Origin: Escherichia phage APCEc01
Sequence record: NC_029091.1
DNA length: 64,000 nucleotides
Strand: one strand, 5' to 3'
In this document: piece by piece, positions 12,683 through 48,490 of the stretch
How the letters are laid out: each line of letters opens with the position of its first letter
How positions within the stretch are numbered: the first letter of the stretch is position 1
Made by a program: the position numbers and the translations under genes
The notes under the pieces: generated by a model
Told to the model about the DNA's origin: nothing
The model's input: the letters and a program-made list of their open reading frames with translations, nothing else
Database searches by the model: none

Positions 12683-12716
12683 GTTTACATAAAGATGATG
12701 GTGTGTTACTATCATC
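12683..12716 (+). promoter_or_regulatory. early promoter with stem-loop (GTTTACA -35, TACTAT -10)
   Basis: GTTTACA at 12683-12689, 17-bp spacer carrying inverted repeat GATGAT/ATCATC, -10 at 12707-12712. Confidence 0.55.
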
Positions 12717-12746
12717 CTATCAAATAAACAGCCTCAAGGAAATAAA

Positions 12747-13034
12747 ATGAAATCCTATAAAGAATTTATATCACCTTTTGCTAACGTTTCTACTCTGACC
12801 GAAGCAACCCTTACTTCCGAAGTTATTAAAGCAAATAAAGGACGTGAGGGTAAACCAATGATTAGCCTGGTTGACGGCGAAGAAGTAAAAGGTACTGTTT
12901 ACTTAGGGGATGGATGGTCTGCTAAGAAAGACGGCGCTACTATTGTTATCTCTCCGGCCGAAGAGACTGCACTGTTTAAAGCTAAGCATATTTCTGTAGC
13001 TCAGCTTAAAATTATTGCAAAAACTCTTCTGTAA
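12747..13034 (+). CDS. internal protein candidate with capsid-targeting N-terminus (IPI-like by position)
   Basis: 95-aa ORF starting MKSYKEFIS, resembling the T4 internal-protein leader MKTYQEFIAE; sits next to 57B where T4 has ipI. Confidence 0.7.
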   Translation: MKSYKEFISPFANVSTLTEATLTSEVIKANKGREGKPMISLVDGEEVKGTVYLGDGWSAKKDGATIVISPAEETALFKAKHISVAQLKIIAKTLL

Positions 13035-13037
13035 GTA

Positions 13038-13080
13038 GTTTACATGCTGATAGGACTATGTTATAGTAGTCCTATCAAAA
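13038..13080 (+). promoter_or_regulatory. early promoter with stem-loop, repeat family A
   Basis: GTTTACA at 13038-13044, TATAGT at 13062-13067, palindrome ATAGGACTAT...ATAGTAGTCCTAT spanning the -10. Confidence 0.6.
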
Positions 13081-13104
13081 CAAATGAGTAAATGGAGAAA
13101 TAAA

Positions 13105-13290
13105 ATGAAACGCGCTGAACTGATTCGTAATGTTGCTGTAGTAATTGCTTCAATGGCTTTTAGTTTTTCGATGTTTGTAGGATTCATTTGCGGACTACTG
13201 ACAACAACTGAAAATTCTATCTCATTGGTAGTAGCATTTCTAATCGGTTTAATCGCTATCGTTATGGATAAAATTGCAAAAGGTGAGTAA
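13105..13290 (+). CDS. small hydrophobic membrane protein
   Basis: 61-aa product from ATG after GGAG; single hydrophobic segment. Confidence 0.5.
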   Translation: MKRAELIRNVAVVIASMAFSFSMFVGFICGLLTTTENSISLVVAFLIGLIAIVMDKIAKGE

Positions 13291-13291
13291 A

Positions 13292-13654
13292 ATGAAATAT
13301 CACGTATATGCGGATTTTGAAGCAAATCCTTCTAAAGACCCTGATTGTCGTTTGATACGCAAACCATTTGATTCAGCAGCTCAAGCATGGACTTGGATTA
13401 AATCTAAATCGCCTGGTTATATGTTCTTTGAAGTAGTCGATGACAATGGTACACTGCATCCAGAACCTACAGAAACTATTAATTTCCTTCTGTTTGCTGG
13501 TTACGACTGTTATCCTCTTGGTGGTATTGATGATCTTGTTGCTACAGGAAAAACTGTTGAGGCTCTTCGCGAAATTTATAAAAACGCAGAAGAAAATTTT
13601 GACTGGTACCAGATTGTCAGTGCACATACTTTTGAAGTGGTGGAACACTCATGA
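13292..13654 (+). CDS. hypothetical protein
   Basis: 120-aa product from ATG after GGTGAG RBS; no recognisable family. Confidence 0.55.
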   Translation: MKYHVYADFEANPSKDPDCRLIRKPFDSAAQAWTWIKSKSPGYMFFEVVDDNGTLHPEPTETINFLLFAGYDCYPLGGIDDLVATGKTVEALREIYKNAEENFDWYQIVSAHTFEVVEHS

Positions 13655-13941
13655 TTCTTTACGCTAAAGTAAAATCTGTCGAGAACGGATATGAAAGCGA
13701 TCAACGTGCAGCTAAAGCACTAGTCGATGACTATGGTATTTTGACTAATTTTGAAGTTGAAAAGGTTTATATCGACCGTTCATCTTCGCAAGTTAAATTA
13801 CTCTGTGAAGATGATAAATTTAACACAGTTAACTTTGATTTCTTTATTGAAACAGAAAAAGGCCCTCTTGAATATGATATTTTCAAGAATCCTTTGAAAT
13901 TACGTTGCATTGAATATAATTACATTAATATGGTACGGTGA
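13651..13941 (+). CDS. hypothetical protein
   Basis: 96-aa ORF, start overlaps upstream stop. Confidence 0.5.
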   Translation: MILYAKVKSVENGYESDQRAAKALVDDYGILTNFEVEKVYIDRSSSQVKLLCEDDKFNTVNFDFFIETEKGPLEYDIFKNPLKLRCIEYNYINMVR

Positions 13942-13945
13942 GTAA

Positions 13946-14461
13946 ATGAATATTTGTTTAGGCAGTACAATTCCTAAGGGTTACGTAATTGATGTCACTA
14001 CTTGGGAAAATGACGGCGACAACTATAAAACTAAAACGTTGTTTGGTGTAGAAGAGCATGAGCTCCAACAGTTTAAATATCTCTTGAAGAAATTTAAGAG
14101 TCGTCATTCCAGCACTAAAGCTGAACGTTACTGTGGTAATACACCATTCAGTGATTGCTCGCTTTTAATCTATGAATACTTGGTTGAAGGACTGTTCTCA
14201 GACCAGCTTTATCCAGAATTCATTAAAAAGGTCTTTGGTATTGAAGTCGACCTTGGTAATAAATCTGAAGAAGACGAATCGCGTGTATTTGACCTGTTCC
14301 ATGAGAATGGATATTTAGTATCAGAAGGTCTCATTGATATTCTTGGCCATGCTTCTGAATATTATGATTATGATTTCTTGCGTGTAGTTGAATGTGTTGA
14401 ATTTGCTTATATTGAAGAAGAAATCGTTTTGCCGACTGTTAAAATGATTGATTTGCTTTAA
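13946..14461 (+). CDS. hypothetical protein
   Basis: 171-aa ORF after GGTGAG RBS. Confidence 0.55.
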   Translation: MNICLGSTIPKGYVIDVTTWENDGDNYKTKTLFGVEEHELQQFKYLLKKFKSRHSSTKAERYCGNTPFSDCSLLIYEYLVEGLFSDQLYPEFIKKVFGIEVDLGNKSEEDESRVFDLFHENGYLVSEGLIDILGHASEYYDYDFLRVVECVEFAYIEEEIVLPTVKMIDLL

Positions 14462-14540
14462 GAATTATGTGTTATTATTAATTCATACCCTCTATTACCA
14501 AAGGTGCTCTAAAGTGCCTTTCATAATAGAAAGTTATTTA

Positions 14541-14614
14541 GGCCCTGTAGCTCAATGGTTAGCAGCAGTCCCCTCATAAGGGAAAGGTTACCAGTTCGAA
14601 TCTGGTCTGGGTCA
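14541..14614 (+). tRNA. tRNA with CAT anticodon (Met, or Ile if C34 is modified)
   Basis: Cloverleaf: acceptor GGCCCTG/CTGGGTC, T-arm ACCAG-TTCGAAT-CTGGT, anticodon loop CTCATAA; no encoded CCA. Confidence 0.75.
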
Positions 14615-14620
14615 TATATT

Positions 14621-14697
<77 letters not shown>

Positions 14698-14715
14698 ACT
14701 TTAAGTGAGGAAAAT

Positions 14716-15060
14716 ATGAAAGGTAATATTTATCTGGTAGTTCATGATTTAACGTTTTATTTTAATGAACAGGATACAGTTATTTCCGACCGGTTGATTA
14801 ATTCGTTATATCAACACGCTGATTACGTTTATTTCCAAAATGAATTTGGCCATTGGAAGTTTCTTAAAAACCGTTCCGGGTTAACTAGTTTTGAATACTT
14901 TGACCGTAAAGACCTTTTAAACGAAATTCCATTACAACATCGGTTCCAGAAACGCGAATCACTATACTATTGTCGTCATATACCAAATGCTGAATGTGTT
15001 TATGAAGCGATTAATCTATGGCGTCGGCGTCGAGAGCAAATTGATGATATGCCAAAATAA
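14716..15060 (+). CDS. hypothetical protein
   Basis: 114-aa product from first ATG after RBS; the upstream ORF-track extension overlaps tRNA-Arg and is rejected. Confidence 0.5.
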   Translation: MKGNIYLVVHDLTFYFNEQDTVISDRLINSLYQHADYVYFQNEFGHWKFLKNRSGLTSFEYFDRKDLLNEIPLQHRFQKRESLYYCRHIPNAECVYEAINLWRRRREQIDDMPK

Positions 15061-15371
15061 GAAGCCGGGTCGCTACCGGCAAGTCGTCGGACTGATGTTC
15101 CCTGAGTAAGGACTGGTCTTAATAAATCTTTACGATTTGTTAATATCCCCTTACATCACAGCAGAAACGGCGCACAGAATTATCGATTCGAGGAAATATC
15201 TTTGTCGTAAGCCGAGTAGCGTTTTTGACGGAACGTTCGGATATGGTCGAGATATGGCCTTTTAAAAATATTGAGTAGCGTCAACTGCTTAATAACCGGG
15301 TTCGAATCCCGGCGTTTCGTACAAACACTTGCCTTAGCAGGTGGAACCCCGACAAGGTTGCCGCAAGGCTT
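15061..15371 (+). ncRNA. candidate small stable RNA region
   Basis: About 300 bp without a credible ORF, GC-rich paired segments and a tRNA-like T-arm (CCGGG-TTCGAAT-CCCGG), closed by a terminator; T4 has small stable RNAs next to its tRNAs. Confidence 0.3.
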
Positions 15372-15399
15372 AGCCCCTTCCGAAAGGTCGGGGCTTTTT
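15372..15399 (+). terminator. intrinsic terminator (GCCCC..GGGGC plus T5)
   Basis: AGCCCCTTCCGAAAGGTCGGGGCTTTTT. Confidence 0.7.
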
Positions 15400-15444
15400 G
15401 GCATAATAATAAATAGATAAGTTAATTAACTTAGGAAAAGCAAC

Positions 15445-15909
15445 ATGAAATCATACGCTGAATTTTTGACTGAACAATCTAGTTCAGATGTAAAAGCCGC
15501 TGCGATTGCAGCAATTCAAGCAGGTAAATATTCTTACAAAGACGCCTCTGATGAAGAACGTTTCCGTTTTATTAGAGATTTTAAAGCCGAAGGTTTTACT
15601 AATGCTAATACTGTTAGCCGAGTTTTTAAAAGCCTAGCTGCATCAGGTGAATTGTTCCAGAAAGCTACAGGTAAAGCACCTGCGCCAAAAACAGACCCTA
15701 AAGCAGCTCAAGAAAAAAATATCGCCAAAGGAATTATTTCTAAGTATGAAGCAATTCTTAAAGAGCTTTTAGTAATCAAAACAGAAGGCCAGAAACTGGC
15801 ACGAGCACATAGCTTCAAAGATAATCCTCACGCTCATAGCCTTGAGTATGTTGAAGATATCCAAAAACTTATTAAAGACCGTATCTGGTCTGCTAAACAA
15901 ATTAAATAA
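15445..15909 (+). CDS. internal protein candidate with capsid-targeting N-terminus
   Basis: 154-aa ORF starting MKSYAEFLTEQ. Confidence 0.65.
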   Translation: MKSYAEFLTEQSSSDVKAAAIAAIQAGKYSYKDASDEERFRFIRDFKAEGFTNANTVSRVFKSLAASGELFQKATGKAPAPKTDPKAAQEKNIAKGIISKYEAILKELLVIKTEGQKLARAHSFKDNPHAHSLEYVEDIQKLIKDRIWSAKQIK

Positions 15910-15914
15910 TAGAA

Positions 15915-15942
15915 TGCCCCTTCCTTATGGTTGGGGCCTTTT
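15915..15942 (+). terminator. intrinsic terminator-like hairpin
   Basis: TGCCCCTTCCTTATGGTTGGGGCCTTTTGG, variant of the hairpin at 15372. Confidence 0.5.
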
Positions 15943-15975
15943 GGTATCTAGGGCATAAAAATATTTCATAAAGAT

Positions 15976-16010
15976 GTTTACTTCTTCTAAGGACATGATA
16001 CTATAGACTT
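15976..16010 (+). promoter_or_regulatory. early promoter (GTTTACT -35, TACTAT -10)
   Basis: GTTTACT at 15976-15982, TACTAT at 15999-16004. Confidence 0.5.
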
Positions 16011-16032
16011 ATCAACCATAGAGGAAAATGTT

Positions 16033-16536
16033 ATGAGTCTTTACACTGAACTGAATAAAAAATCTGAAGAATCTGCTGAAACTATTTTTAAAAACGTGCA
16101 AAAGCGTATTTTGGAAAAGATGTACGATGCAGCATCTAAAGGTGAAAAATCTTGCCGGTTTCCGATGAGGTGTTCTTCTGATTTATGCGCAAATACTATT
16201 GAATGGCTGGAAAGTGAAGGTCTTACGGTAGAGAAAAACCCGGCGACTTCTATTGACGGCGAATCATATATTAGTATTTCTTGGGATAAATCAAGGGTAG
16301 AAGAGAAAGATGGTGATTGGGTTGTAGATGTTAAAACTTCTGATGGTGGACGTTCTGTTGAAGTTTCAGCTGTAGTTAAAGGCACCCACGAACAAAGGAC
16401 TTGGGGTTGGGGTGGTGAAGAAAAAGAAATTGTTCTTAGTGTGATTGCCAGGTCAACTAGTAATAAAATTGCACAAAGCATCATTGACGCTGCAATTGCT
16501 GAAGCAGAAAAAATTTGCAAAATTAAAAATAAATGA
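16033..16536 (+). CDS. hypothetical protein
   Basis: 167-aa ORF after AGAGGAAA RBS. Confidence 0.55.
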   Translation: MSLYTELNKKSEESAETIFKNVQKRILEKMYDAASKGEKSCRFPMRCSSDLCANTIEWLESEGLTVEKNPATSIDGESYISISWDKSRVEEKDGDWVVDVKTSDGGRSVEVSAVVKGTHEQRTWGWGGEEKEIVLSVIARSTSNKIAQSIIDAAIAEAEKICKIKNK

Positions 16537-16570
16537 TGTACAAACGCCAAGGATGGTGGTACTATAGACT
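16536..16570 (+). promoter_or_regulatory. early promoter with stem-loop
   Basis: ATGTACA -35, 17-bp spacer containing CCAAGGATGGTGG, TACTAT -10 at 16560-16565. Confidence 0.45.
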
Positions 16571-16595
16571 TATCAACTACAGAGGAGTAAACAAA

Positions 16596-16760
16596 ATGAC
16601 TACTTTAATTATTTGGTTCGATGAAAATGAAGAAACATACTGTGTGAATATTGGTGAAAGTCCAATGCCTGAATTTGAATCCTCGGATAAAAACTCTGTT
16701 GTATCTTGGGCTGAAGGTTATAAAGCAGCTAAAGGTGACGTTGAAATAATTTACATCTAA
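16596..16760 (+). CDS. hypothetical small protein
   Basis: 54-aa product from ATG after AGAGGAG; the longer ORF-track version would overlap the promoter. Confidence 0.45.
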   Translation: MTTLIIWFDENEETYCVNIGESPMPEFESSDKNSVVSWAEGYKAAKGDVEIIYI

Positions 16761-16806
16761 GTAAGTTTATGTTATAGTAATCACATCAAATCAAGAGGAA
16801 AATAAA

Positions 16807-17034
16807 ATGGCTAAAGTTAGTATTGATGTCGTTGATTATGAATACACCGAAGAAGTTATTCGCAACCGACACCCTGAAGTTCGTATCGATTCAGTCCAAG
16901 ATTCCAAGTTCTGGACAACTGAGCTTAATCTGAGTGGTCCTTATGAAGCTGTTAAGAAGTTCATGGTTGAAGAATACTGCGAAGGCATGCACCCCGAAGA
17001 CGCCAAGTTTTATGTCAATTTGATTAAAAAATAA
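16807..17034 (+). CDS. hypothetical protein
   Basis: 75-aa ORF after AGAGGAAAA RBS. Confidence 0.5.
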   Translation: MAKVSIDVVDYEYTEEVIRNRHPEVRIDSVQDSKFWTTELNLSGPYEAVKKFMVEEYCEGMHPEDAKFYVNLIKK

Positions 17035-17071
17035 TTTACAAACTCTTGAGAGCAGAGTATAATGCTCTCAT
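17034..17071 (+). promoter_or_regulatory. early promoter with stem-loop
   Basis: TTTACA at 17035-17040, TATAAT at 17058-17063, inverted repeat TGAGAGCA/TGCTCTCA across the -10. Confidence 0.55.
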
Positions 17072-17104
17072 CGGATAACAAACCACCAATTGAAAGGTAA
17101 TAAT

Positions 17105-17698
17105 ATGAACACACTGAAGAAACTTGTTGAATTCATCCGCACTAAACTTGGTACTGCTATGGCTAAAAATCTGACTGTCGAAGAACAGTATAACGCAGCT
17201 GCAGATAAGTTGATTACCCAAATCAAAGAACTAAAAACGGCTTCTGTTAAATCTATTAATGAAGAAAAACGTATTCGCGAACTTGTTAATGAAAAGAACA
17301 AACAAGCCGCTTCTAAGGAACGTGAAATTCGTAAGCTCTTGGCTGAAGGACAAGATGTTACCATGCATGCTAAGCTTGGTCTTCTGTATCGTCGAACTGC
17401 CGAACAACTTAATACAAAGGCTGACGGGTATGCCGCTATGCGAATTGAAATTGCTCGTAAGGTGGTTGAACTTGATGATGCTCGTCAGAATCTGGCAATC
17501 AAACTCGAATACATTCGTGAAACTCGAGCAGCCAATGCCCTTGGTATCTCTACGGCTGATGATGTAATTGAAATCGCTGCACTGACTAAGGTTGATATCG
17601 AAGACACTCTGACTCGTGTTGAAACGTTCAATGGCACTCCAGCCGGTGTCGAAACCACTTCTGCTGATGTACAAGAATATATTAACTCTTTGAAATAA
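17105..17698 (+). CDS. hypothetical coiled-coil protein
   Basis: 197-aa product, Lys/Glu/Ala-rich heptad-like sequence. Confidence 0.55.
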
Positions 17699-17705
17699 AA
17701 TAATA

Positions 17706-17728
17706 CGGAGGACTCCGGTCCTCCTTTT
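17706..17728 (+). terminator. intrinsic terminator
   Basis: GGAGGAC-TCCG-GTCCTCC followed by TTTT. Confidence 0.65.
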
Positions 17729-17747
17729 GGATAATAAAGGAGTTAAC

Positions 17748-18350
17748 ATGCGAAACCAAAATAATGATATTGACTCAATGTTCGAAGAGTTCCGAGATAA
17801 GGTAAATCCACCTACGTCTTTAGTTGATTCATTACGATATGTTGCAACCGGACGTAAATGGTACTGGTCGTCTTCTTATGAGACTACTGAGAAAACGGCT
17901 AGCCATAGCAGAAAATCTTTATTAGCCCCAGGTATTATGATTCATGATATCGGAGCTATTGCTAAACTAGTTGCAGACCATGATATTAGATTCACCGATT
18001 TCGTTGCTCCTACATGGTCTGTTTGTTGTTTAAACACTGAATGGGAATATATCAGCGAACGCTCTAAAGATTATTATGGTTTTAGAGATAAGCTTCTGAG
18101 GTCTAACATGTTTTATATTGATACAGAAGTTCTGGTCAATAATAAAAAATACTACTTCACTTTAATCGTCGATTCTGAAACTATGTATGAAGGCGGGCCT
18201 TTGCTTAAGAGAGTTGATGCTTTAAGTGCTATTGATGCGCTTTATGAAACTATGGTTGTTAGTCCTAATTTCACTAACAATTTAATCCTTGAGCAATTTA
18301 TTATGGAATGTAGAGAATATGTCAAAGCCAACCCTGTACATGCCAATTAA
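17748..18350 (+). CDS. hypothetical protein; C-terminus has FIMECR motif
   Basis: 200-aa product from ATG after GGAG; ends ...EQFIMECREYVKANPVHAN. Confidence 0.5.
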   Translation: MRNQNNDIDSMFEEFRDKVNPPTSLVDSLRYVATGRKWYWSSSYETTEKTASHSRKSLLAPGIMIHDIGAIAKLVADHDIRFTDFVAPTWSVCCLNTEWEYISERSKDYYGFRDKLLRSNMFYIDTEVLVNNKKYYFTLIVDSETMYEGGPLLKRVDALSAIDALYETMVVSPNFTNNLILEQFIMECREYVKANPVHAN

Positions 18351-18714
18351 GCCCTGGGCATACGAATACAAGCGTAAATTAATCCCAAATGAAGTACTAT
18401 TTGGCCCTATTTTAGCTTTAGCATTTTTAATCTTTATGATTATAGGAGCTGTTTTAGATTCCAATAAAGTTATATCGTCTGATGCAGCATTTTCATTAAT
18501 GTTCGTCGCACCACTTATTGTACCGTTTTTATTAATGCCTATTAATTGGGTAGGATATTGGCACCAAGGCCGTCATCACAGAGCTCGAGTAAGAGAATGG
18601 AAAGTTCAGTGCGCAAAAGCCCAAGCTCAGTATGATGAAGCTGTTAAAAAGTATGAATATGAAGAAGCTATGGAATTCGTTAAGGAAATAAGATGCAAAA
18701 GCCTCAACTCTTAA
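18319..18714 (+). CDS. hypothetical membrane protein
   Basis: 131-aa product with two hydrophobic segments; overlaps the upstream gene end. Confidence 0.45.
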   Translation: MSKPTLYMPIKPWAYEYKRKLIPNEVLFGPILALAFLIFMIIGAVLDSNKVISSDAAFSLMFVAPLIVPFLLMPINWVGYWHQGRHHRARVREWKVQCAKAQAQYDEAVKKYEYEEAMEFVKEIRCKSLNS

Positions 18715-19052
18715 CCGTATGGCCTTCTCTTGGTGAGAACATTCTAATTTTTATTATGAGTATTGGCATGGGATTTGCCTTTGGATTAGTTGGATTTCTT
18801 ATTGACGGCGTTGTGTTAGGATTTATAGGGAACACTGGTGGATTCACAGACCAATGGCAGGACTTACGGTATACCCAAGCCTTTGCATCCATCGCATCAT
18901 TTTGTACTGTAGTCTATTTTTACTACGATTTTATAAACCACAACAAGAAAAATAAAAAGGTTTACGCTTCTCAAATGATTAGTTATAATGAACTCCTAGC
19001 TAGACGTGAAAATGAAACAATCGAAAACTTTATTAAGGAATGTAGAAAATGA
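18693..19052 (+). CDS. hypothetical membrane protein; C-terminal NFIKECR motif
   Basis: 119 aa, hydrophobic N-terminal half, ends ...ETIENFIKECRK. Confidence 0.5.
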   Translation: MQKPQLLTVWPSLGENILIFIMSIGMGFAFGLVGFLIDGVVLGFIGNTGGFTDQWQDLRYTQAFASIASFCTVVYFYYDFINHNKKNKKVYASQMISYNELLARRENETIENFIKECRK

Positions 19053-19354
19053 GTAAGATTATTGAAATTAAAGTACCAGAGTTTAATGATGCCAAATCCG
19101 CTTCAGATGCAATTTATAAACTTCTGAATCAAGCTGAACGTATCGAAGAAGAAGCAACAAAGATCGCAGACCAATATGCCGTATCATTTTCTGTAGGTGA
19201 TTATGGTAGCGGTCGTACTTATTATCCTAAGGGTGAAATCGTATCCCAGTGGATGAAAGATGAAATTGAAAATAATGGCGGCGATGTTAAGCGTGAAGGT
19301 AATGGATACGTTATTACTGAAGGTGCTTGGGTTTCGTCTTCTGCGTTGTGCTAA
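19049..19354 (+). CDS. small protein, tandem paralog A (C-terminal GAWVSSSALC)
   Basis: 101 aa; shares DYGSGRTYYP and GWVxSS..C motifs with the next two ORFs. Confidence 0.5.
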   Translation: MSKIIEIKVPEFNDAKSASDAIYKLLNQAERIEEEATKIADQYAVSFSVGDYGSGRTYYPKGEIVSQWMKDEIENNGGDVKREGNGYVITEGAWVSSSALC

Positions 19355-19363
19355 GGAATCATT

Positions 19364-19636
19364 ATGTCTAAAGAACAAACCGAACTGGCTGAAGCTGTAG
19401 CAAAAATCTATGCAGCTATTGAGGCTGCCAAAGAAATTGCTGATAAACAAAACACAACATTCAACTTGTACCCAGCTTATGGTATGGGTGGAACCTATCA
19501 TTCACCCGGACATCTTAAAGCCGATCTTGAACGTTGTACAAAAAACGGCTATGCTGAATGGGCTGACGTTTACCAATACGACTACAACCTGAGCCTCGAA
19601 ACTGGTGGTTGGGTCGCATCTTCTCACACTTGCTAA
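19364..19636 (+). CDS. small protein, tandem paralog B (C-terminal GGWVASSHTC)
   Basis: 90 aa; gene junction TGCTAAGGAAnCAnTATGTCT identical to paralog A. Confidence 0.5.
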   Translation: MSKEQTELAEAVAKIYAAIEAAKEIADKQNTTFNLYPAYGMGGTYHSPGHLKADLERCTKNGYAEWADVYQYDYNLSLETGGWVASSHTC

Positions 19637-19645
19637 GGAAACAAT

Positions 19646-19843
19646 ATGTCTCGTGAATTAGATTGTGCTGTACGTACGGCAGTAGCTGCTCTGGAAAACC
19701 TGTTCCAAATTGCAACAGAAGAACGCGAAGAAGTTACATTATGGATTGAAGATAACGCAGGTCTGAATCTCCAGGACGCGATCTCATTATCCCACAATAG
19801 TATCACTGTTCAAGGCTGGGTATCATCTAGTTATTCTTGCTAA
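19646..19843 (+). CDS. small protein, tandem paralog C (C-terminal QGWVSSSYSC)
   Basis: 65 aa, same C-terminal motif. Confidence 0.45.
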   Translation: MSRELDCAVRTAVAALENLFQIATEEREEVTLWIEDNAGLNLQDAISLSHNSITVQGWVSSSYSC

Positions 19844-19847
19844 AACA

Positions 19848-19890
19848 GTTTACAACAAGATAGGGCTATGTTATAGTAGTCCTATCAAAA
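19848..19890 (+). promoter_or_regulatory. early promoter with stem-loop, repeat family A
   Basis: GTTTACA at 19848-19854, TATAGT at 19872-19877, palindrome ATAGGGCTAT...ATAGTAGTCCTAT. Confidence 0.6.
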
Positions 19891-19905
19891 CAAATGGAGT
19901 CCACA

Positions 19906-20145
19906 ATGATTTATTACGAAAGTATCGGAACCAAAGTGGTTAGTAAAACCATTACTCGTGAAAAGTTTGCAAAGATATTCGATATGCGTTATAAAAAATC
20001 TGAACACAAAGGCATCCGATTCGAAGATGCGCACTGTACAATTTGCCCTTATAATGAAGACATAAACGGTACAATCGTTCCATTGGTAGAGGCTTCACAT
20101 GATGACCTCTGGGATGAATATAATATCGCATGTCGTGAAATTTAA
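19906..20145 (+). CDS. hypothetical protein
   Basis: 79-aa product from ATG after GGAG. Confidence 0.5.
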   Translation: MIYYESIGTKVVSKTITREKFAKIFDMRYKKSEHKGIRFEDAHCTICPYNEDINGTIVPLVEASHDDLWDEYNIACREI

Positions 20146-20173
20146 GTTAATGAATTAATCCGAGGAAAATATT

Positions 20174-21130
20174 ATGATGTTAGTTATTGGTTCTCGTGCA
20201 CTTCACTATCACGGTCTTATTGATTCTAGCGCTATTAAAAATAGTGATTGGGACTTTATTGCGGACCAAGGTTCTTGGAATGCATTCAAAAATCAAATGA
20301 TGGGTGTATATGTTCACCAAGATAACCCTGATGTCCAAGTTTTCAAATGCTTCCATAATGGACGCGAAACTCATTTTGAAGCATATATTGTTCCGGCAAT
20401 CACTAATGTCCGTGAATTAGTCGGTGAACTCACTCCTGAAGATTTCACGTCTTCTTATGACCTTTTAAAATACGCCAAGAAAAATTTGACTAAAGACCGT
20501 TTGAACGGGTTTTACTGGGCAACTCCTGAGATATGTCTTGCAATTAAGATGTCTCATCGTTTCAAGAAAAATAATCCATTCTTTTTAAAGACTATGAACC
20601 ATATTCAGTATCTTCGTGGTAAAGGTGTTACACTGAACGATGAACTTACTGAAATTATGCTGAAACGCCAGAAAGAAACCTTGAATTATGCTCACCCAGT
20701 TCTTGACACTTCTAAAAGTGCGTTCTTTAAAGATGACATCTATACATATGACCATGATACTATTCATGAAGCCATTGCACTAACAGACCGTCCAGCGTAT
20801 ACATTTTATATGAAAGATGGTTCTGAAGTCATGACCTCACGCGAGAAGTTCGAATCATTACCAGAAATGGTCAAATTGGCCGGCGTATACGAAGAATCAT
20901 GTGTACTAGCGTTAGAACGTTCTCAGATTCCTAATAACTTTGAAATCCATCCACGTGATAGTTTTATGATGGCCCTTGAAAAGGTCTGTACATCAATCAC
21001 ATCAGGATGGTTCCGTGAGTTCGCTTGGGAAAATTATAGCAAAGTAGTAAGTATGTACCAAAGCTTAGGACACGACGATTACGTCAAGCGTTTCAAACAA
21101 AACTTTCATATGGTAAAACCTTTCAAATAA
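20174..21130 (+). CDS. hypothetical protein, possible minimal nucleotidyltransferase fold
   Basis: 318-aa ORF; N-terminal IGSRALHYHGL...DWDFI resembles a G-S...D-x-D motif (weak). Confidence 0.5.
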   Translation: MMLVIGSRALHYHGLIDSSAIKNSDWDFIADQGSWNAFKNQMMGVYVHQDNPDVQVFKCFHNGRETHFEAYIVPAITNVRELVGELTPEDFTSSYDLLKYAKKNLTKDRLNGFYWATPEICLAIKMSHRFKKNNPFFLKTMNHIQYLRGKGVTLNDELTEIMLKRQKETLNYAHPVLDTSKSAFFKDDIYTYDHDTIHEAIALTDRPAYTFYMKDGSEVMTSREKFESLPEMVKLAGVYEESCVLALERSQIPNNFEIHPRDSFMMALEKVCTSITSGWFREFAWENYSKVVSMYQSLGHDDYVKRFKQNFHMVKPFK

Positions 21131-21142
21131 TTTCACAAAACA

Positions 21143-21185
21143 GTTTACAAGGTCTGTAGTTGTTGATACTATAGACCTATCAAAA
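21143..21185 (+). promoter_or_regulatory. early promoter with stem-loop
   Basis: GTTTACA at 21143-21149, TACTAT at 21167-21172, inverted repeat AGGTCT/AGACCT; upstream TTTCACAAAACAGTTTACA is identical to the 12670 promoter. Confidence 0.55.
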
Positions 21186-21210
21186 CAAATGAGTGAATGG
21201 AGATATAAAA

Positions 21211-21411
21211 ATGACTACTTTGAATAAACGTTTCGGTAAAGCTAAACCTGGTTGTGCAGCAGAACGTCGTTATGTTTTCGCTCAGTTAGAAGATGTAGAG
21301 TATCAGATTAATCAAGTTCACATTACTGGCATCGAGCCTATGTGTGGCCTTGAAGCTCTTCGTGAAGTTCGTGATGGGTATCGTCGTGACATCGAAGAAA
21401 TGTCAAAATAA
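21211..21411 (+). CDS. hypothetical protein
   Basis: 66-aa product from ATG after GGAG. Confidence 0.5.
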   Translation: MTTLNKRFGKAKPGCAAERRYVFAQLEDVEYQINQVHITGIEPMCGLEALREVRDGYRRDIEEMSK

Positions 21412-21455: not shown

Positions 21456-21469
21456 ATGAGGAGAATATT

Positions 21470-38964: not shown

Positions 38965-39915
38965 ATGACACGTTCACATTACATTGAATACTTTGCAGGT
39001 CTTATCGCTAACGTTCATGCCCAACGTGCTTCTGGTGTACTAGGATTTGATGTTCCACACCGAGATGTAGTAAGTGGTATTCTTCGAGATTTTGGTACAT
39101 ACATAGGCCAAGAAAATCATATCTGTAAAGATACTCAAAATGCATATTCTCATTCATTAGGGACACTGCTTCAATGGTTCAAACGTTCTCGTTTATTATC
39201 TTCTACTGTAGCTCGCGATAACATTAAAAACTTTATGAAGCCGAGCTTCATTAAATCTGTGACATCTAAAACCGATTTGGTTGAATTCACTATTGTTAAT
39301 GATGTTAAAAAGACTCATTTGGCTGATTGGTTATCTACCATTCCTGAAACTAAATTTGCTGATAAATTTGCTTGTGAATTCAATAACCAAGTGAATATGC
39401 TTTTTAAACATTCTCGTAAATTATTCACAGGCGGCGATGATCGTACAAATACAGTTCATGCTAAAGATTGGGTTACTGCAGTGTTCAAACCAACCGGTAA
39501 TGGTACCGCATCATTATCAATTGATATTCAGGTTCCTTATTATTACTCACGTAATCTCGGCACCATGAAAGCTGAAGAAATTAAGAAGCACAATAAAACC
39601 ATTCGTTCGCTGTCTTATAAACTTCGCATGATGTTAAGAGTCATGGACGTGGTAGAAATGTATGATGAAACCGAAGATAATGGTTCAATGTTATACAGTT
39701 CTCGCATTCAAATTAAGTTGAAGAACCCTAACGAGTATAAGCCTAAGCCTATTAAAGAGCCTAAAGCAGAAAAAGTTGATAACTTAAGAGAAGAACGCGA
39801 ATATCTCAAATCTCGTCTGAAAGAAGTCGAAGCCCAGATTGCAGAACAAACTAAATCGTTAAAAGCTCTGAATGCGAAAGCGGATGGTTTACGAAATGCC
39901 ATTGAGGTGTTATAA
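38965..39915 (+). CDS. hypothetical protein with C-terminal coiled coil
   Basis: 316-aa ORF. Confidence 0.55.
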   Translation: MTRSHYIEYFAGLIANVHAQRASGVLGFDVPHRDVVSGILRDFGTYIGQENHICKDTQNAYSHSLGTLLQWFKRSRLLSSTVARDNIKNFMKPSFIKSVTSKTDLVEFTIVNDVKKTHLADWLSTIPETKFADKFACEFNNQVNMLFKHSRKLFTGGDDRTNTVHAKDWVTAVFKPTGNGTASLSIDIQVPYYYSRNLGTMKAEEIKKHNKTIRSLSYKLRMMLRVMDVVEMYDETEDNGSMLYSSRIQIKLKNPNEYKPKPIKEPKAEKVDNLREEREYLKSRLKEVEAQIAEQTKSLKALNAKADGLRNAIEVL

Positions 39916-40633: not shown

Positions 40634-40889
40634 AGTGTACGGGTATGACTCTACTATTCATAAATGCGTTTATTGTGATAATGCGAAACGATTGCTGACT
40701 GTTAAGAAACAGCCATTCGAATTCATTAATGTTATGCCAGAAAAAGGTGTGTTCGACGATGAGAAAATTACTGAGCTTCTGACTAAGCTCGGGCGTGAAA
40801 CAAAAGTCGGATTGACAATGCCACAGGTATTTGCTCCTGATGGAACTTTGATCGGCGGATTTGACCAACTGCGAGAATATTTTAAATGA
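40626..40889 (+). CDS. nrdC: thioredoxin/glutaredoxin NrdC
   Basis: 87-aa product MFKVYGYDSTIHKCVYCDNAKRLL... with CVYC active site, close to T4 NrdC. Confidence 0.9.
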   Translation: MFKVYGYDSTIHKCVYCDNAKRLLTVKKQPFEFINVMPEKGVFDDEKITELLTKLGRETKVGLTMPQVFAPDGTLIGGFDQLREYFK

Positions 40890-41182
40890 GTATTGATTTA
40901 ACTTTCCCGGGCCCTTATGACCTGGGTGAATTAGAAGCTTTATTATATCAAGAAATGTGCTCTCGTGCTAAGAACGATATTCAGTATGCTATCGATAATC
41001 CATGGGGTGAATTTCGTATATTAATGGGTAATCGAATCATCGGTGTCCAATGGCGATTCGTTGGCCTTGAGCCTGAGGACTATGAAGAAAACGAGCACGG
41101 TGACTGGATTCCTGTTGGTGAATACCACTGGGAATACGGTGGTCCTGATTTTGAAGTCTCTTGTTCATGGGTAGAACAATAA
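40886..41182 (+). CDS. hypothetical acidic protein
   Basis: 98-aa ORF. Confidence 0.5.
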   Translation: MSIDLTFPGPYDLGELEALLYQEMCSRAKNDIQYAIDNPWGEFRILMGNRIIGVQWRFVGLEPEDYEENEHGDWIPVGEYHWEYGGPDFEVSCSWVEQ

Positions 41183-41200
41183 CCTGCGAGAAAATTTTAA

Positions 41201-41557
41201 ATGACATATTCATTAAATCTTAAAGATTTCCAAGATGTATACGAAGTTTGTGCCAATGAACTTGGACCTGATGCTCCAACTATTATTGAAGTTTTAAATG
41301 TGCTCCCTTCATCATTAGCTTACGAAGCCAAATCATGGGGTTGGAACGACACTGTCGTTCGTGATGACCTTTACGTCCTGATGAACGATATGATGGTTAA
41401 AAAGGCAGAACCGGTTGCGCCAATGGTTACCATTACCGTTGAAGAATATAATCGCCTGCAAGCCATTGAAGAGCTTCTGTGGAACATTGAATGTGACCTG
41501 CCGTCAGGGCTAGAATCCTGGATTGATTATGAAGAGCTCAATAAACTCCGGGGTTAA
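41201..41557 (+). CDS. hypothetical protein
   Basis: 118-aa ORF. Confidence 0.5.
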   Translation: MTYSLNLKDFQDVYEVCANELGPDAPTIIEVLNVLPSSLAYEAKSWGWNDTVVRDDLYVLMNDMMVKKAEPVAPMVTITVEEYNRLQAIEELLWNIECDLPSGLESWIDYEELNKLRG

Positions 41558-41857
41558 ACCGTGGTATTCTGCTCGATGGGAGACTGTCGAGCCAGACGTC
41601 GAAACGGTTTACAACGACGAAGAACCATGTTATGATGAACCTTCAATAAATGAATTAATTGATATGGAAATGGGAAGAGATTATTATGCAAGTTAAATTA
41701 TTGTACCGTTTATTAAAAAATGGCAAACACGATTGGTATTTGCTTATTAAAACCGATCCGAATTTTTTCTCTGGACAACCATTTACAGTTCGTCCTACTA
41801 AACGTCAGCTTCGCAAAGCTAAACGTTCTCATCGTAACTTTTATAGAGAATATTGAT

Positions 41858-42283
41858 ATGAATATTTCTGAAACTCGCGGTAAATGGTTCAAGATTGTTA
41901 AAGAAGATGAAGAACTACAAGTCAAGTTTCCTGAATTAAAGAAAGATACGATCATCAAGGTAATTGGTACTACTACCGAAGATGGTTATGGCGACCATGG
42001 CATTATTGAAGTGATGTTGTCTACCGGTGAGAAACTTTGCATCTATGACCGTGATACTTCTCTTTGGTGCTTCTGGGAATCACATTCAATAGATGAACTC
42101 GAAGAAATTGATTCGGCTGATATTGCGGATGTGCTAGGTAGTAAACTTGGTGAATTCGAAGGTGAACGAATTTCTTATGCATTAGCTAAATTAGCTGGAC
42201 AAGAAAATAACGACGGCTATGAAGGTAACCTGATGCAAGCAGCCGCAGAATACATTGAATATTTAGAAAGACGTTTAAGTTAA
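41858..42283 (+). CDS. hypothetical acidic protein
   Basis: 141-aa product from internal ATG (MNISETRGKWFKIVKE...); directly upstream of gene 49. Confidence 0.5.
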   Translation: MNISETRGKWFKIVKEDEELQVKFPELKKDTIIKVIGTTTEDGYGDHGIIEVMLSTGEKLCIYDRDTSLWCFWESHSIDELEEIDSADIADVLGSKLGEFEGERISYALAKLAGQENNDGYEGNLMQAAAEYIEYLERRLS

Positions 42284-42288
42284 TAAAT

Positions 42289-42313
42289 ACCCTTATCTAT
42301 TTAAGGTAAGGGT
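42289..42313 (+). promoter_or_regulatory. hairpin over the gene 49 translation initiation region
   Basis: 7-bp stem ACCCTTA/TAAGGGT; the 3' arm overlaps the RBS 6 nt before the ATG. Confidence 0.5.
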
Positions 42314-42318
42314 TTATC

Positions 42319-42792
42319 ATGTTATTATCAGGCGCAAAATATAAAGAAGAAAAACAAAAATTTTATGATGCACAGAACGGTAAGTGTCCTATTTGCCACC
42401 GTGAATTAGACCCTGATGTTCAAGGTAACCATCTTGACCACGACCACGAATTAAACGGGCCAAAAGCCGGTAGAGTTCGTGGATTACTCTGTAATCTGTG
42501 CAACGCAGCAGAAGGCCAAATGAAGCATAAGTTCAATCGTTCCGGTCTTAAAGGACGTGATGTTGACTACCTCGAATGGCTTGAAGCTCTTCTTGCTTAT
42601 TTGAAACAAGATTATTCTGATAATAATATCCATCCTAATTTTGTTCCAGACAAAACTAAAGAGTTCTCAAGACTAGGTAAAGAGGAAATGATGGCTGAGA
42701 TGCTTCAAAGAGGATTTGAATATAATGAATCTGACACCAAAACACAGTTAATAGCTTCATTTAAGAAGCAGCTTAGAAAGAGTTTAAAATGA
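42319..42792 (+). CDS. 49: endonuclease VII (Holliday junction resolvase) gp49
   Basis: 157 aa, MLLSGAKYKEEKQKFYDAQNGKCPICHREL...HLDHDHELNGPKAG..., close to T4 gp49. Confidence 0.93.
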   Translation: MLLSGAKYKEEKQKFYDAQNGKCPICHRELDPDVQGNHLDHDHELNGPKAGRVRGLLCNLCNAAEGQMKHKFNRSGLKGRDVDYLEWLEALLAYLKQDYSDNNIHPNFVPDKTKEFSRLGKEEMMAEMLQRGFEYNESDTKTQLIASFKKQLRKSLK

Positions 42793-45719: not shown

Positions 45720-46008
45720 AATTTATGGCATCCCTGAAGAAGTAGGACGTTGTCCAGGATGTTATGCTGTTACAAAACTTTTAAAGGATCTCAATGCTCC
45801 TTATACATTTTATAAAGTCCTCACTAATAATGGTAAGATTGAATATGACCGTCCTTTAATCGTATCTCTTGCTAAACGTGCAGGATTCACTTCACTTAAT
45901 ATTCGTTATCCTGTCATATTTTTAAATGATAAGAAACAAAAGAATATTGCAGAGTTTAAAAAGTCCTTGATTTCATTAGGATATGACTCTGATATCATAG
46001 AAGATTGA
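45715..46008 (+). CDS. glutaredoxin-like protein (NrdH-like); start codon unresolved
   Basis: Thioredoxin-fold sequence KIEIYGIPEEVGRCPGCYAVTKLL with CPGC site; no in-frame ATG at the expected N-terminus. Confidence 0.5.
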   Translation: MEIYGIPEEVGRCPGCYAVTKLLKDLNAPYTFYKVLTNNGKIEYDRPLIVSLAKRAGFTSLNIRYPVIFLNDKKQKNIAEFKKSLISLGYDSDIIED

Positions 46009-46035
46009 CCAGGTGCCGCCTGGTCTTCTTTATCT
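46009..46035 (+). terminator. terminator-like hairpin
   Basis: CCAGG-TGCCG-CCTGG followed by a T-rich run. Confidence 0.45.
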
Positions 46036-46176
46036 CATTTCTAATATAATCCATTGGAATCTTCACTTCACTATCTCCTTGTGCCCCTCTCAAATCAAAA
46101 AATATTTTCATAAAACCAGTTTACATCCTCGATAGATATGTTAAGATTAACACCATCTACCGCAGAGGAAAACAAA

Positions 46177-46359
46177 ATGACAATTGAAGATAAAGAAATT
46201 AAGGTTGACCAGTACTATTCTGTCAATGGTAATGCCATACAGATAACCAGAGTTTCAAGCCTGGATGTTTGGTACCGTTCAATCAAATATCCAGAAATTG
46301 GTGAAATGCTTTGTGACCGTGGTATATTCTGTTCAATTGCGAAGGAAATTAAGTCATGA
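46177..46359 (+). CDS. hypothetical small protein
   Basis: 60-aa product from ATG after GAGGAAAA. Confidence 0.45.
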   Translation: MTIEDKEIKVDQYYSVNGNAIQITRVSSLDVWYRSIKYPEIGEMLCDRGIFCSIAKEIKS

Positions 46360-46905: not shown

Positions 46906-46912
46906 GGAAATT

Positions 46913-47047
46913 ATGAATATCAAACGAATGCTTTTTAAGCAGGGATTATATACTTTAAATGTTAATCCAAAGGGTGATACAACTAAATGGTCTGTAAATG
47001 ACTGGATTAAGTTCATCGATGAAAATGGGGCCTGGAACACAAAATGA
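46913..47047 (+). CDS. hypothetical small protein
   Basis: 44-aa product from ATG after GAGGAAA. Confidence 0.35.
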   Translation: MNIKRMLFKQGLYTLNVNPKGDTTKWSVNDWIKFIDENGAWNTK

Positions 47048-47244
47048 ATCCTGAATCTATGTTATCGCAAAAGCTTCGTGAAGAACGTGCCGAATTCTTT
47101 GCCAATATGAAACTCAACGGCGTTGAGGATGAAGACTTCTTACGCTGGTTCTGGATTTACAAATACAAAGAATGCCAGCACGCTGTACTACTGACTTGTG
47201 CAGTTATGTACGAAGGCTGGAAAGGCGCTAAAAAGTTCGGTTAA
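47044..47244 (+). CDS. hypothetical protein
   Basis: 66-aa ORF. Confidence 0.45.
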   Translation: MNPESMLSQKLREERAEFFANMKLNGVEDEDFLRWFWIYKYKECQHAVLLTCAVMYEGWKGAKKFG

Positions 47245-47246
47245 TA

Positions 47247-47290
47247 ATGTACAACGATAGGAAGATATGTTATTATCTTCCTATCGTCTT
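47247..47290 (+). promoter_or_regulatory. early promoter with stem-loop
   Basis: ATGTACA -35, TATTAT at 47271-47276, 12-bp inverted repeat GATAGGAAGATA/TATCTTCCTATC. Confidence 0.55.
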
Positions 47291-47307
47291 AAAATGAGGA
47301 AAATATC

Positions 47308-47547
47308 ATGGCCCAAGAATTAGATTTTATCAAATTCAAAAAACACCTCGACGTTAAAATTGGGGATTCAATTGTTAGGATTGAGTATGACATTTTAACA
47401 GATGCTATTACTGTTGGTTGTGATGGAAATAGTTTCAGCTTCGATACAACCGAAAACAAATACCCAATCTATAAAGGCATCTTTGATATGGGTGTTGATA
47501 TTACTCCACGCGATACAAATTACTTGCTTTTCATGCTTAAAAAATAG
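47308..47547 (+). CDS. hypothetical protein
   Basis: 79-aa ORF. Confidence 0.5.
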   Translation: MAQELDFIKFKKHLDVKIGDSIVRIEYDILTDAITVGCDGNSFSFDTTENKYPIYKGIFDMGVDITPRDTNYLLFMLKK

Positions 47548-47590
47548 TATACAAACTCTTGAGAGCAGAGTATAATTCTCTCGTTGGATA
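47547..47590 (+). promoter_or_regulatory. early promoter with stem-loop (near-copy of the 17034 cassette)
   Basis: GTATACA -35, TATAAT at 47571-47576, shared core AAACTCTTGAGAGCAGAGTATAAT. Confidence 0.55.
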
Positions 47591-47613
47591 ATAAAATAAC
47601 CGAGGAAAATAAT

Positions 47614-47946
47614 ATGTCTACTAAAATCAAAAACGTAGTTAATTCTTTCGCTTTCGATAAAGTTGTTGCTCTTCTGGAATCTGGCAATATTGTTACTCCT
47701 CAAGTTCTTGACGCATGGGAATTCCGTCTTTATGAAATCATGCAAAAACACAACCAGAAAATTGGACGTAATTCTATTCGTGAAATTCTAGTGCAATATA
47801 TTCTTTCTGAATTTGACGTTGCTGCGTTTGGTGTTGAATCTAAAGCTTATCAGAAACATGAAATCTCTGAAAAGACTATCCGTCGTATGAAAAATCAACG
47901 TAAGAAAAAATTCGTTGACCTGAAAATTGTTAAGGCGGCAAAATGA
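47614..47946 (+). CDS. hypothetical protein
   Basis: 110-aa product. Confidence 0.5.
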   Translation: MSTKIKNVVNSFAFDKVVALLESGNIVTPQVLDAWEFRLYEIMQKHNQKIGRNSIREILVQYILSEFDVAAFGVESKAYQKHEISEKTIRRMKNQRKKKFVDLKIVKAAK

Positions 47947-48170
47947 GCGTATTAACAGAAACTTTGATTAATGACCTGCGTCTAGCTGGTTACGAAGTTG
48001 GTACAAATAGTCTAGGTCTTCCTCAGATTGAAGGTCCTGGATTTATTCTAGAATACGAATTCAAACAATGGTGGTTATATGCTACGGTTGACGATGCGTT
48101 GAATATTGATTTCGTTGACCAATTTGATTCGCTGGATGCTGCTCTTGAAGCAGCAAAGGAACTAGAATGA
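47943..48170 (+). CDS. hypothetical acidic protein
   Basis: 75-aa ORF. Confidence 0.5.
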   Translation: MSVLTETLINDLRLAGYEVGTNSLGLPQIEGPGFILEYEFKQWWLYATVDDALNIDFVDQFDSLDAALEAAKELE

Positions 48171-48436
48171 AATTAACTCGAATCAGTATAACTGAAGAAA
48201 AGCTGGGCGAATTTTATGTTGACGAATACATGAAAGTCACGTATTTTCCATTCGTTAAAGGTGTTGGTTTTTGGGAAACTCATGTATCTCAATTAAACGA
48301 AGGCGACTATAACGAAACACATGAGAACTTTTTAGATTTTCTTTATAATGCCGGTCTTACTGAGCTTTATATCGATATCCATGAGTTCAAACGTTTAATG
48401 GAAAAAGTGTTTCAGGCTTATTGTTTGCTCCGATAG
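48167..48436 (+). CDS. hypothetical protein
   Basis: 89-aa ORF. Confidence 0.5.
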   Translation: MKLTRISITEEKLGEFYVDEYMKVTYFPFVKGVGFWETHVSQLNEGDYNETHENFLDFLYNAGLTELYIDIHEFKRLMEKVFQAYCLLR

Positions 48437-48443
48437 TATCTCG

Positions 48444-48490
48444 TGCTTTAAGATAGGTCTCTAAATATTATGATATAATAGACCTATGAA
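48444..48490 (+). promoter_or_regulatory. promoter with stem-loop upstream of gene 55
   Basis: TGCTTTA at 48444-48450, TATAAT at 48474-48479 flanked by inverted repeat ATAGGTCT/AGACCTAT. Confidence 0.4.

Follow-up and report, generated by a model that had tools for sequence, protein, structure and literature searches.

Probable composite early-promoter and inverted-repeat cassettes ahead of small genes in a Mosigvirus genome

A 64,000-nucleotide stretch of the Escherichia phage APCEc01 genome (record NC_029091.1; hereafter the window) probably contains a set of composite early-promoter cassettes of the promoter-early stem-loop (PeSL) type, in which a promoter, an inverted repeat and a recombination patch are combined. 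The cassettes are ~60-100 bp long and occur in ~21 repeated copies ahead of small genes. The window aligns colinearly with positions 96001-160000 of Escherichia phage vB_EcoM_SCS57 (OM960734.1), a member of the genus Mosigvirus in the RB69/JS09 group of T-even phages, and differs from it by 924 substitutions and no insertions or deletions (indels) in the first 50 kb. Roughly 160 Mosigvirus genomes match at 95-99% identity. The region studied extends from gene 57B/ipI to gene 55 and has all its genes on the plus strand, including tRNAs, e, denV, regB, vs, tk, rI, nrdC.x genes, pin, 49, nrdD/G and many small open reading frames (ORFs). A preliminary description of the window had listed 21 sites and regarded them as PeSLs that delimit gene modules.

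At 20 of the 21 listed coordinates, a -35 element (G/A)T(T/G/A)TAC with A, T or G as the next base opens the site, and a -10 element TAnnnT (TACTAT, TATAGT, TATAAT, TATTAT or TAAGAT) follows after a 16-17 bp spacer. Each of the 20 sites is a T4-type early promoter in an intergenic gap that ends with a Shine-Dalgarno (SD) sequence and an ATG, in agreement with the preliminary description. Its site list is otherwise corrected at two points: a cassette at 16749 had been overlooked, and the site at 48444 lacks a -35 element and is not a full cassette. A TGn motif is present in 17 of the 21 cassettes (the 20 confirmed sites and 16749). A conserved CTATCAA box constitutes the +1 region 3' of the -10 element, with the SD sequence and ATG 55-70 nt downstream, and the 24 nt upstream of the cassettes are 73% A+T (41% A), compared with 63% (33% A) in the region. 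In the syntenic region of RB69, all 22 matches coincide, at a constant 14-nt offset, with early promoters predicted in 2006 (Nolan et al. 2006, PMC1524935), and T4 contains 13 matching sites in the syntenic 40 kb, including those 5' of ipI, denV and regB. The sequence elements and the orthology to T4 and RB69 early promoters together point to a promoter role.

A two-block weight matrix was built from the confirmed sites, with Markov simulations as the null. The matrix yields 22 matches on the plus strand and none on the minus strand against 0.24 expected, and no match in the whole window lies outside 12683-47547. The motif scan that the preliminary description had suggested places the cassettes far above the Markov expectation and on the plus strand only. 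A core-only model (-35, TGn and -10) was run with leave-one-out scoring as a check on training bias, and all 20 sites score 13.9-22.6 bits. At >=12 bits, the core model returns 29 plus-strand and 2 minus-strand sites, compared with 3.5 expected on both strands (second-order Markov). The surplus consists of six promoter-like sites inside genes (18960, 22963, 39887, 41607, 44679 and 46822), which score 13.6-21 bits and lack the +1 box, SD and ATG layout. The 46822 site has its own stem around the -10 element and an orthologue inside T4 gene 55.5, and the 41607 site is the counterpart of RB69 Pe:48639 of Nolan et al. A loose -35/-10 regular expression was dropped as too permissive (38 plus-strand and 22 minus-strand hits vs ~15 expected per strand), and position weight matrices (PWMs) were used instead. 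In a generic sigma70 scan, the region does not stand out from shuffled sequences (75 vs 63 and 71 vs 65), no Rfam family matches the cassettes, and the T4 GenBank record has no promoter features annotated.

The cassettes are confined to the longer gaps of the region. With 48444 included, all 22 are located in intergenic gaps of 46-168 bp; they occupy 22 of the 87 gene junctions and 22 of the 29 gaps of at least 46 bp. The blocks of baseplate genes (1-12 kb) and replication genes (49-64 kb) are free of cassettes.

The segments running from the -35 element to the ATG were folded individually with RNAfold and compared with dinucleotide shuffles. The mean z score is -2.6, and an empirical p <= 0.05 is obtained for 15 of the 21 cassettes. 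The preliminary description had the repeat either span the -10 element or reach the ribosome-binding site (RBS). Both geometries are found and define classes A and B, but a third geometry, undescribed there, is restricted to the spacer, and four cassettes have no significant stem. In class A (12683, 13038, 17034, 19848, 21143, 21412, 32098, 36270 and 47247, with degraded stems at 34794 and 47547), one arm lies in the spacer and pairs with an 8-14 nt segment located 3' of the -10 element or overlapping it, and the stem encloses the -10 element, which lies in the loop of some cassettes and in the stem of others. In class B (15976, 24438 ahead of denV, 27996 ahead of regB, 31649 and 46119), an anti-SD sequence directly after the -35 element pairs with the SD sequence across loops of 17-30 nt. 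The 3' arm is always the SD sequence, and in all five cassettes the predicted start lies between the arms, as in the SD-masking hairpins of T4 e, soc, 49 and I-TevI. In class C (37911 and 38907, and weakly and not significantly 16536), a short hairpin is formed entirely in the spacer. Cassettes 31649 and 47547 each have a stem that is weak or degraded. The spacer pairs with the downstream segment of its own cassette at -12.1 kcal/mol and with those of other cassettes at -8.1 kcal/mol, a difference matched by none of 20,000 permutations (P < 5e-5). The complementarity is therefore cassette-specific rather than a shared motif.

The pairing is retained across T4-like phages while the arms change. 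Ahead of orthologous genes, T4 and the window both have the hairpin but differ in arm sequence. The denV arms are TTCCTCCAAG/CTTGGAGGAA in the window and TCTCCTGTAG/CTACAGGAGA in T4, and those of the mobD.2a-like gene are GGTAGGACTA/TAGTCCTATC in the window and GTTGACAAGATTA/TAATCTTGTCAAC in T4, where the stem spans 14-15 bp. The ipI hairpin of T4 has the arms GATGAGGTA/TACCTCATC, and T4 also keeps the regB hairpin with different arms. The e.6 arms GAGAGCA/TGCTCTC compare with GTGTAGGAG/CTCCTACAC, and other genera keep a stem of unrelated sequence around the -10 element. The nrdC.8 leader belongs to class B in T4 and to class A in the window.

Additional regB, denV and e.6 leaders were taken from IMG/VR loci. 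For regB, a MAFFT alignment left the arms out of register, and column pair counting was replaced by an alignment-free comparison of own and cross duplexes. Five lineages each have their own complementary pair, with own duplexes of -15 to -23 kcal/mol and cross duplexes of -7 to -15 kcal/mol, and the stem is missing only in the most distant relative compared. The denV set comprises 26 unique leaders with a T4-type -35 element. The SD sequence is fully paired in 26 of 26 leaders, compared with 39% of shuffles. At least 10 arm variants are observed in two geometries, and in both the 5' arm is upstream of the predicted start. In the second geometry (leaders L043, L048-L050, L058-L063, L065 and L071), the 5' arm begins inside or just after the -10 element, as in TATGATGTCTTCC...GGAGGACATCATG, and pairs with both the SD sequence and the start codon. 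The arm differences between lineages are compensatory, which shows, on comparative grounds, that the hairpin pairing is under selection.

Gene exchange was analyzed by chained BLAST of window positions 11000-50500 against eight Mosigvirus genomes (SA79RD, RB69, EP02SG, mar005p1, LNA2, JS09, phiC120 and ST2). Gene content differs between relatives at the cassettes, as the preliminary description had anticipated: cassette zones, covering 8.0% of the region, contain 15 of 44 distinct indel or replacement endpoints (P = 8e-7). When only the 34 endpoints at gene junctions are considered, cassette junctions account for 14 of them, compared with an expected share of 25% (P = 0.03). The description of the cassettes as boundaries of gene modules holds for these breakpoints, but the other endpoints lie elsewhere and a gene-level test is not significant. 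The cassettes appear, from these comparisons, to be preferred crossover points and not the sole ones.

Deletions, insertions and replacements are all represented at the cassettes. A 262-bp deletion in six genomes has its left crossover in cassette 21143 and its right crossover in cassette 21412. RB69 and phiC120 lack the gene at 21211-21411, and their one remaining cassette combines the upstream tract and -35 element of 21143 with the stem, -10 element and RBS of 21412. In phiC120, the gene at 16596-16760 is absent, and cassettes 16536 and 16749, the crossover partners, are fused at the +1 box. Both deletions (21149-21412 and 16631-16785) leave hybrid cassettes. Extra genes are found at 12715, 17029 and 34801 in RB69, SA79RD, LNA2 and phiC120, each with a cassette on both sides: an additional internal protein (IP) gene with its cassette at 12683 in RB69, a 291-bp gene insertion at 17034 in SA79RD, and insertions at 34794 in LNA2 and phiC120. 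Cassette 13038 forms the right end of an ipI replacement in EP02SG, a gene replaced in mar005p1 and LNA2 is bounded on the right by cassette 27996, and cassette 15976 is a replacement or insertion endpoint in six genomes. A phiC120 deletion has its right end at 48432, near the half-cassette at 48444.

The cassettes fall into families with 15-34 bp of exact identity, arranged as direct repeats 0.2-7 kb apart. The class A cassettes 13038, 19848, 21412 and 32098 have 20-34 identical bp in common, and the class C cassettes 37911 and 38907 have 33. The 8,720 bp from 12694 to 21413 are 100% identical to SCS57, whereas the remainder of the first 50 kb differs by 1.85% without indels. Both ends of this tract are located inside cassettes (12683 and 21412), and the tract looks like a recent recombination tract. 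A second SCS57-identical tract spans 40771-42377. Elsewhere in the region, the gene at 40886-41182 (within 40867-41218) is absent from six related genomes; its junction has a 34-bp overlap and no cassette, and a different short repeat therefore mediated this deletion.

Several observations weigh against the composite reading. The start sites are placed from the position of the -10 element. RNAfold detects no significant stem relative to shuffles at 16536, 16749, 25180 and 34794. Helix mismatches number 29 G.T and 22 A.C (24:13 in an earlier count) and show no bias toward RNA over DNA. A T-run follows the stem in none of the 21 cassettes, whose tails are A-rich (ATCAAAACAAA). Approximately two-thirds of the endpoints are outside cassettes, for example at 29856/30267, 40901/41184 and 42283. 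The boundaries of shorter identical tracts across nine genomes coincide with cassettes in 3 of 21 cases, without enrichment (P = 0.23), and the 8.7-kb SCS57 tract is therefore only suggestive. Variable genes account for 3 of the 7 genes with cassettes on both sides and 8 of the 50 genes with no cassette (Fisher P = 0.12 for 3/7 vs 13/78 of all others).

The endpoint counts bear on the possibility that the link between cassettes and gene exchange is a by-product, in which cassettes fill nearly all the longer spacers, viable phages result only from breakpoints in spacers, and cassettes would mark survivable junctions without driving recombination. The occupancy of the gaps of at least 46 bp, the modest enrichment over the junction null, the gene-level result and the many events at the cassette-free junctions named above (with a 34-bp overlap at 40901/41184) are in line with this explanation. 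Several junctions, however, are hybrid cassettes with the crossover inside shared sequence (7-65 bp overlap), and inserted genes bring a second cassette. This is the signature of homologous exchange and not of random end-joining in spacers, and the by-product explanation is considered somewhat unlikely.

The PeSL papers proposed that the stem-loops are transcription terminators or attenuators that block upstream polymerase and isolate each cassette. Arbiol et al. (2010, PMC2839356) reported that the RB49 stem-loop PeSL211/210 lowered lacZ expression to the same extent as rrnB T1. Moreover, many orthologous sites carry a double label in the SA79RD record, 'T4 early promoter' together with 'rho-independent terminator', which its depositors assigned by prediction only (with WebGeSTer and TransTermHP), and the hairpins are placed exactly at gene boundaries. 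Because they lack a T-run, however, the cassette stems are not canonical terminators. A consensus terminator scan for a G+C-rich hairpin followed by a U-run returns none of the cassette stems, and the same scan returns separate canonical terminators at 17707, 15378, 34758 and 46007. The 17-30 nt loops of class B and the SD sequence as its constant 3' arm are unexplained by termination. Experimental evidence of termination is limited to one G/C-rich RB49 stem, and RB49 stems consist of G/C tracts that the window stems do not have. Since the window stems are AT-rich and without a T-run, the published terminator function is not simply transferable, and termination as the general role of the stems is unlikely.

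Alternatively, the repeats could act in DNA, through cruciform or hairpin extrusion or a dimeric protein, and modulate promoter firing, for example in early-promoter shut-off, or generate recombination hot spots. The centering of class A stems on the -10/+1 region and the unbiased G.T and A.C counts agree with such a role, the shut-off of T4 early promoters is stated to be mechanistically unexplained (PMC2988021, PMC3014915), and a DNA-binding protein aimed at the stems was a speculation of Arbiol et al. (PMC2839356). However, the arms vary between cassettes and orthologues while pairing is kept, which argues against a sequence-specific protein site, and stems of 8-14 bp with loops of 6-30 nt extrude poorly. 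The position of the -10 element varies between loop and stem among the class A cassettes, and the identity of the class B 3' arm with the SD sequence in every lineage makes sense only in RNA. A DNA-level role is improbable. Least of all is it credible that the repeats are functionless copies of a few ancestral palindromic cassettes spread round the genome, as the shared 20-34 bp of 13038, 19848, 21412 and 32098 and the near copies 37911/38907 and 17034/47547 could suggest, since the window alone has at least seven unrelated arm sequences and pairing persists at the orthologous positions in T4 and other genera despite different arms.

In the composite reading, each cassette would provide a strong host-sigma70 early promoter composed of an A/T-rich tract, the GTTTAC -35 element, TGn and the TAnnnT -10 element. 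Sigma70 promoters start ~7 nt after the -10 element. Transcription of the next small gene, whose SD sequence and ATG close the cassette, would begin at this distance in the conserved TATCAA. With this start, the cassette's own transcript would lack the 5' arm, and therefore only RNA from upstream could fold. In the five class B cassettes, among them those of regB and denV, the SD sequence would be hidden once read-through RNA folds. Because the 3' arm is always the SD sequence, read-through RNA would be translationally silent, and the gene would depend on transcripts from its own early promoter for translation. In classes A and C, read-through RNA would have a hairpin at the gene boundary. The likeliest role of this hairpin is to serve as an attenuator, as a 3'-end barrier once the A-rich leader has been cleaved, or as both; this is the least certain step of the mechanism. 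Finally, the cassettes would act as homology patches, between which recombination would delete, insert or swap genes. Comparative genomics provides the demonstration of this last step, as read from the rearranged genomes.

Class B may represent one instance of a general and conserved T-even device, in which an early promoter is located inside an SD-masking hairpin and RegB and DenV are produced only from their own early promoters. This generalization is possible but short of probable. If it is true, RegB and DenV synthesis would end at early-promoter shut-off despite read-through and middle-mode RNA over the gene, and class B would constitute a post-transcriptional part of early shut-off that is undescribed for regB and denV.

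All cassettes are on the plus strand. Among the class A cassettes, the cassette 5' of ipI (12683-12749) has a stem of 12694-12703 and 12707-12716 around the -10 element (12707-12712; dG -11.7, z -1.95). The cassette 5' of the tRNA.4 orthologue (13038-13107) forms a stem between 13048-13059 and 13066-13077 (dG -18.1, z -4.2), and that 5' of e.6 (17034-17107) between 17047-17054 and 17063-17070 (z -3.4). Similar stems are present in 19848-19908 (19859-19869 / 19876-19886; z -3.5), 21412-21472 (21422-21433 / 21440-21451; z -4.2) and, 5' of the mobD.2a-like gene, 32098-32158 (32107-32119 / 32126-32138; z -4.6). The stem of 47247-47310 (47254-47267 / 47274-47287; dG -22.9, z -6.3) is a perfect 14-bp stem. 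Two class A cassettes use a second register, 21143-21213 (21150-21160 / 21168-21178; z -3.2) and, 5' of the nrdC.8 orthologue, 36270-36328 (36277-36287 / 36294-36304; z -1.8). The degraded class A stems belong to 34794-34863, where the stem is not significant and a terminator-like hairpin (34758-34774) lies upstream, and to 47547-47616 (z -0.7), a paralogue of 17034 with 27 identical bp. In the class A leaders at 13084-13100, 21190-21205 and 34840-34856, GTAAAT or GTGAAT is located just 5' of the SD sequence; base pairing between this motif and the -35 hexamer GTTTAC is possible in read-through RNA and would lengthen the predicted structure toward the RBS.

The class B cassette 5' of regB (27996-28055) contains a perfect 14-bp stem (28002-28015 / 28033-28046) that masks the SD sequence (z -4.5), and that 5' of denV (24438-24497) masks it with the arms 24444-24457 and 24477-24491 (z -4.6). 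In 15976-16035, residues 15982-15992 beside the -35 element pair with the SD arm 16016-16026 (z -2.4). The cassette at 31649-31707 has the arms 31653-31662 and 31693-31703 (z -1.5) and a canonical terminator ahead of it (~31610-31637), which was read in the sequence just 5' of the cassette as a fifth canonical terminator and is not returned by the scan. The cassette at 46119-46179 pairs a short TCCTC with GAGGA and has an inner stem (z -3.7), with a terminator-like hairpin upstream (46007-46025). Both class C cassettes, 37911-37969 (z -1.8) and 38907-38967 (z -2.1), contain the spacer hairpin CAACCA..TGGTTG (37916-37931 and 38912-38927, respectively). The spacer hairpin of 16536-16598 is weak and only loosely of class C (z -0.97), and no significant stem is formed in 16749-16809 (PWM 30.6, z +0.9) or in 25180-25242 in the internal-protein locus (z -0.6).

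The half-cassette 5' of gene 55 (48444-48511) starts with TGCTTTA, has an extended -10 element TGaTATAAT (48472-48479) and an 8-bp repeat (ATAGGTCT/AGACCTAT), and scores below the PWM threshold. It was considered as a MotA-dependent middle promoter and rejected as a T4 middle promoter because the spacing from box to -10 is wrong: 23 bp separate the MotA-box-like TGCTTTA from TATAAT and 15 bp separate it from TATTAT, whereas a MotA box is centered at -30 and requires 11-13 bp.

The terminator ahead of 31649 belongs to a near-identical pair, CCCCTTCCGAAAGGT(C/T)GGGGCTTTTTGGCAT, found 16 kb apart at ~15365-15400 and, directly 5' of the cassette, at ~31610-31640. The first copy is located in a 384-bp non-coding gap (15061-15444) 3' of tRNA-Met, tRNA-Arg and one ORF. 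A T-arm resembling that of a tRNA (GGTTCGAATCCCGG), several G+C-rich stems and the terminator 15378-15393 are present in this gap, which may correspond to rnaC/rnaD, the small stable RNAs of T4; neither ARAGORN nor Rfam finds anything there. Positions 15399-15406 in the same gap form the left end of a replacement in four genomes.

The cassettes describe the wiring of the accessory-gene region, in which each small gene or short operon has a strong early promoter of its own, and explain its evolution because genes are exchanged at repeated regulatory cassettes. They are useful for annotating RB69/JS09-type phages and, as natural and tolerated insertion and deletion points, for engineering therapeutic phages of this type. 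The SD-masking class, with regB and denV, provides a testable hypothesis for confining early proteins to the first minutes of infection.

PeSLs were described in RB49/phi1 (Arbiol et al. 2010, PMC2839356) and subsequently in T4/PST, with the motif TTTACW-N17-TAYWAT, and KVP40/nt-1 (Comeau et al. 2014, PMC4122927). The PeSL architecture named in the preliminary description is found in the window in all its parts, namely an AT-rich tract, a sigma70-type early promoter (16-18 bp spacer at the 20 listed sites and 16749), a variably placed stem-loop, an SD sequence with ATG and clustering in hyperplastic regions. Like PeSLs, the cassettes are intergenic, 5' of small ORFs and beside indels between close relatives, and genes are lost by deletion between tandem copies. 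PeSLs as published are further characterized by promoter activity in vivo, by termination or attenuation at the stem-loop in vivo and by excised mini-circles. A stable stem-loop is present overall and absent from the same four cassettes (16536, 16749, 25180 and 34794). The PeSL reading stands for the architecture, but the stems do not resemble terminators and those of one class mask the RBS, a role undiscussed in the PeSL papers. The -35 element is GTTTAC as in T4/PST, in contrast to TTGACA in RB49, and the AT-rich stems lack the G-run and C-run of RB49 stems and a following T-run. In T4/PST the stems are drawn upstream of the promoter, whereas the window stems enclose the -10 element or reach the SD sequence. 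Neither paper mentions Mosigvirus, RB69 or SD masking, and the later one (PMC4122927) makes no mention of translation.

The cassettes share their consensus and genomic positions with the early promoters of T4 (Miller 2003, as quoted in the SA79RD record) and RB69. T4 early promoters have been described as UP/-35/TGn/-10 promoters (Hinton 2010, PMC2988021); the T4 and RB69 promoter studies cover the promoters alone and leave aside both the inverted repeats and the connection with gene exchange. A literature search found no genome-wide data set of transcription start sites or 3' ends for T4 or RB69. T4-type early promoters with weak AT-rich stem-loops that flank interchangeable internal-protein genes were reported by Repoila et al. 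1994, as cited in PMC2839356. The ipI cassettes (12683 and 13038) and the IP locus at 25180 resemble that arrangement, but the architecture in the window covers 35 kb, beyond the IP loci.

Promoter-dependent SD masking is known at T4 e, soc, 49 and I-TevI (reviewed in PMC3014915). As in class B, the SD sequence is paired there with a 5' strand located upstream of an internal promoter, so that long transcripts are silent and promoter-proximal ones are translated. The internal promoter of those genes is late (or middle) and expression is delayed, whereas in the window it is early, and masking would therefore confine regB and denV expression to the early period. PeSLs, T4 early promoters and promoter-dependent SD masking are already in the literature; the modestly new aspect is the SD-masking class together with its compensatory conservation across genera.

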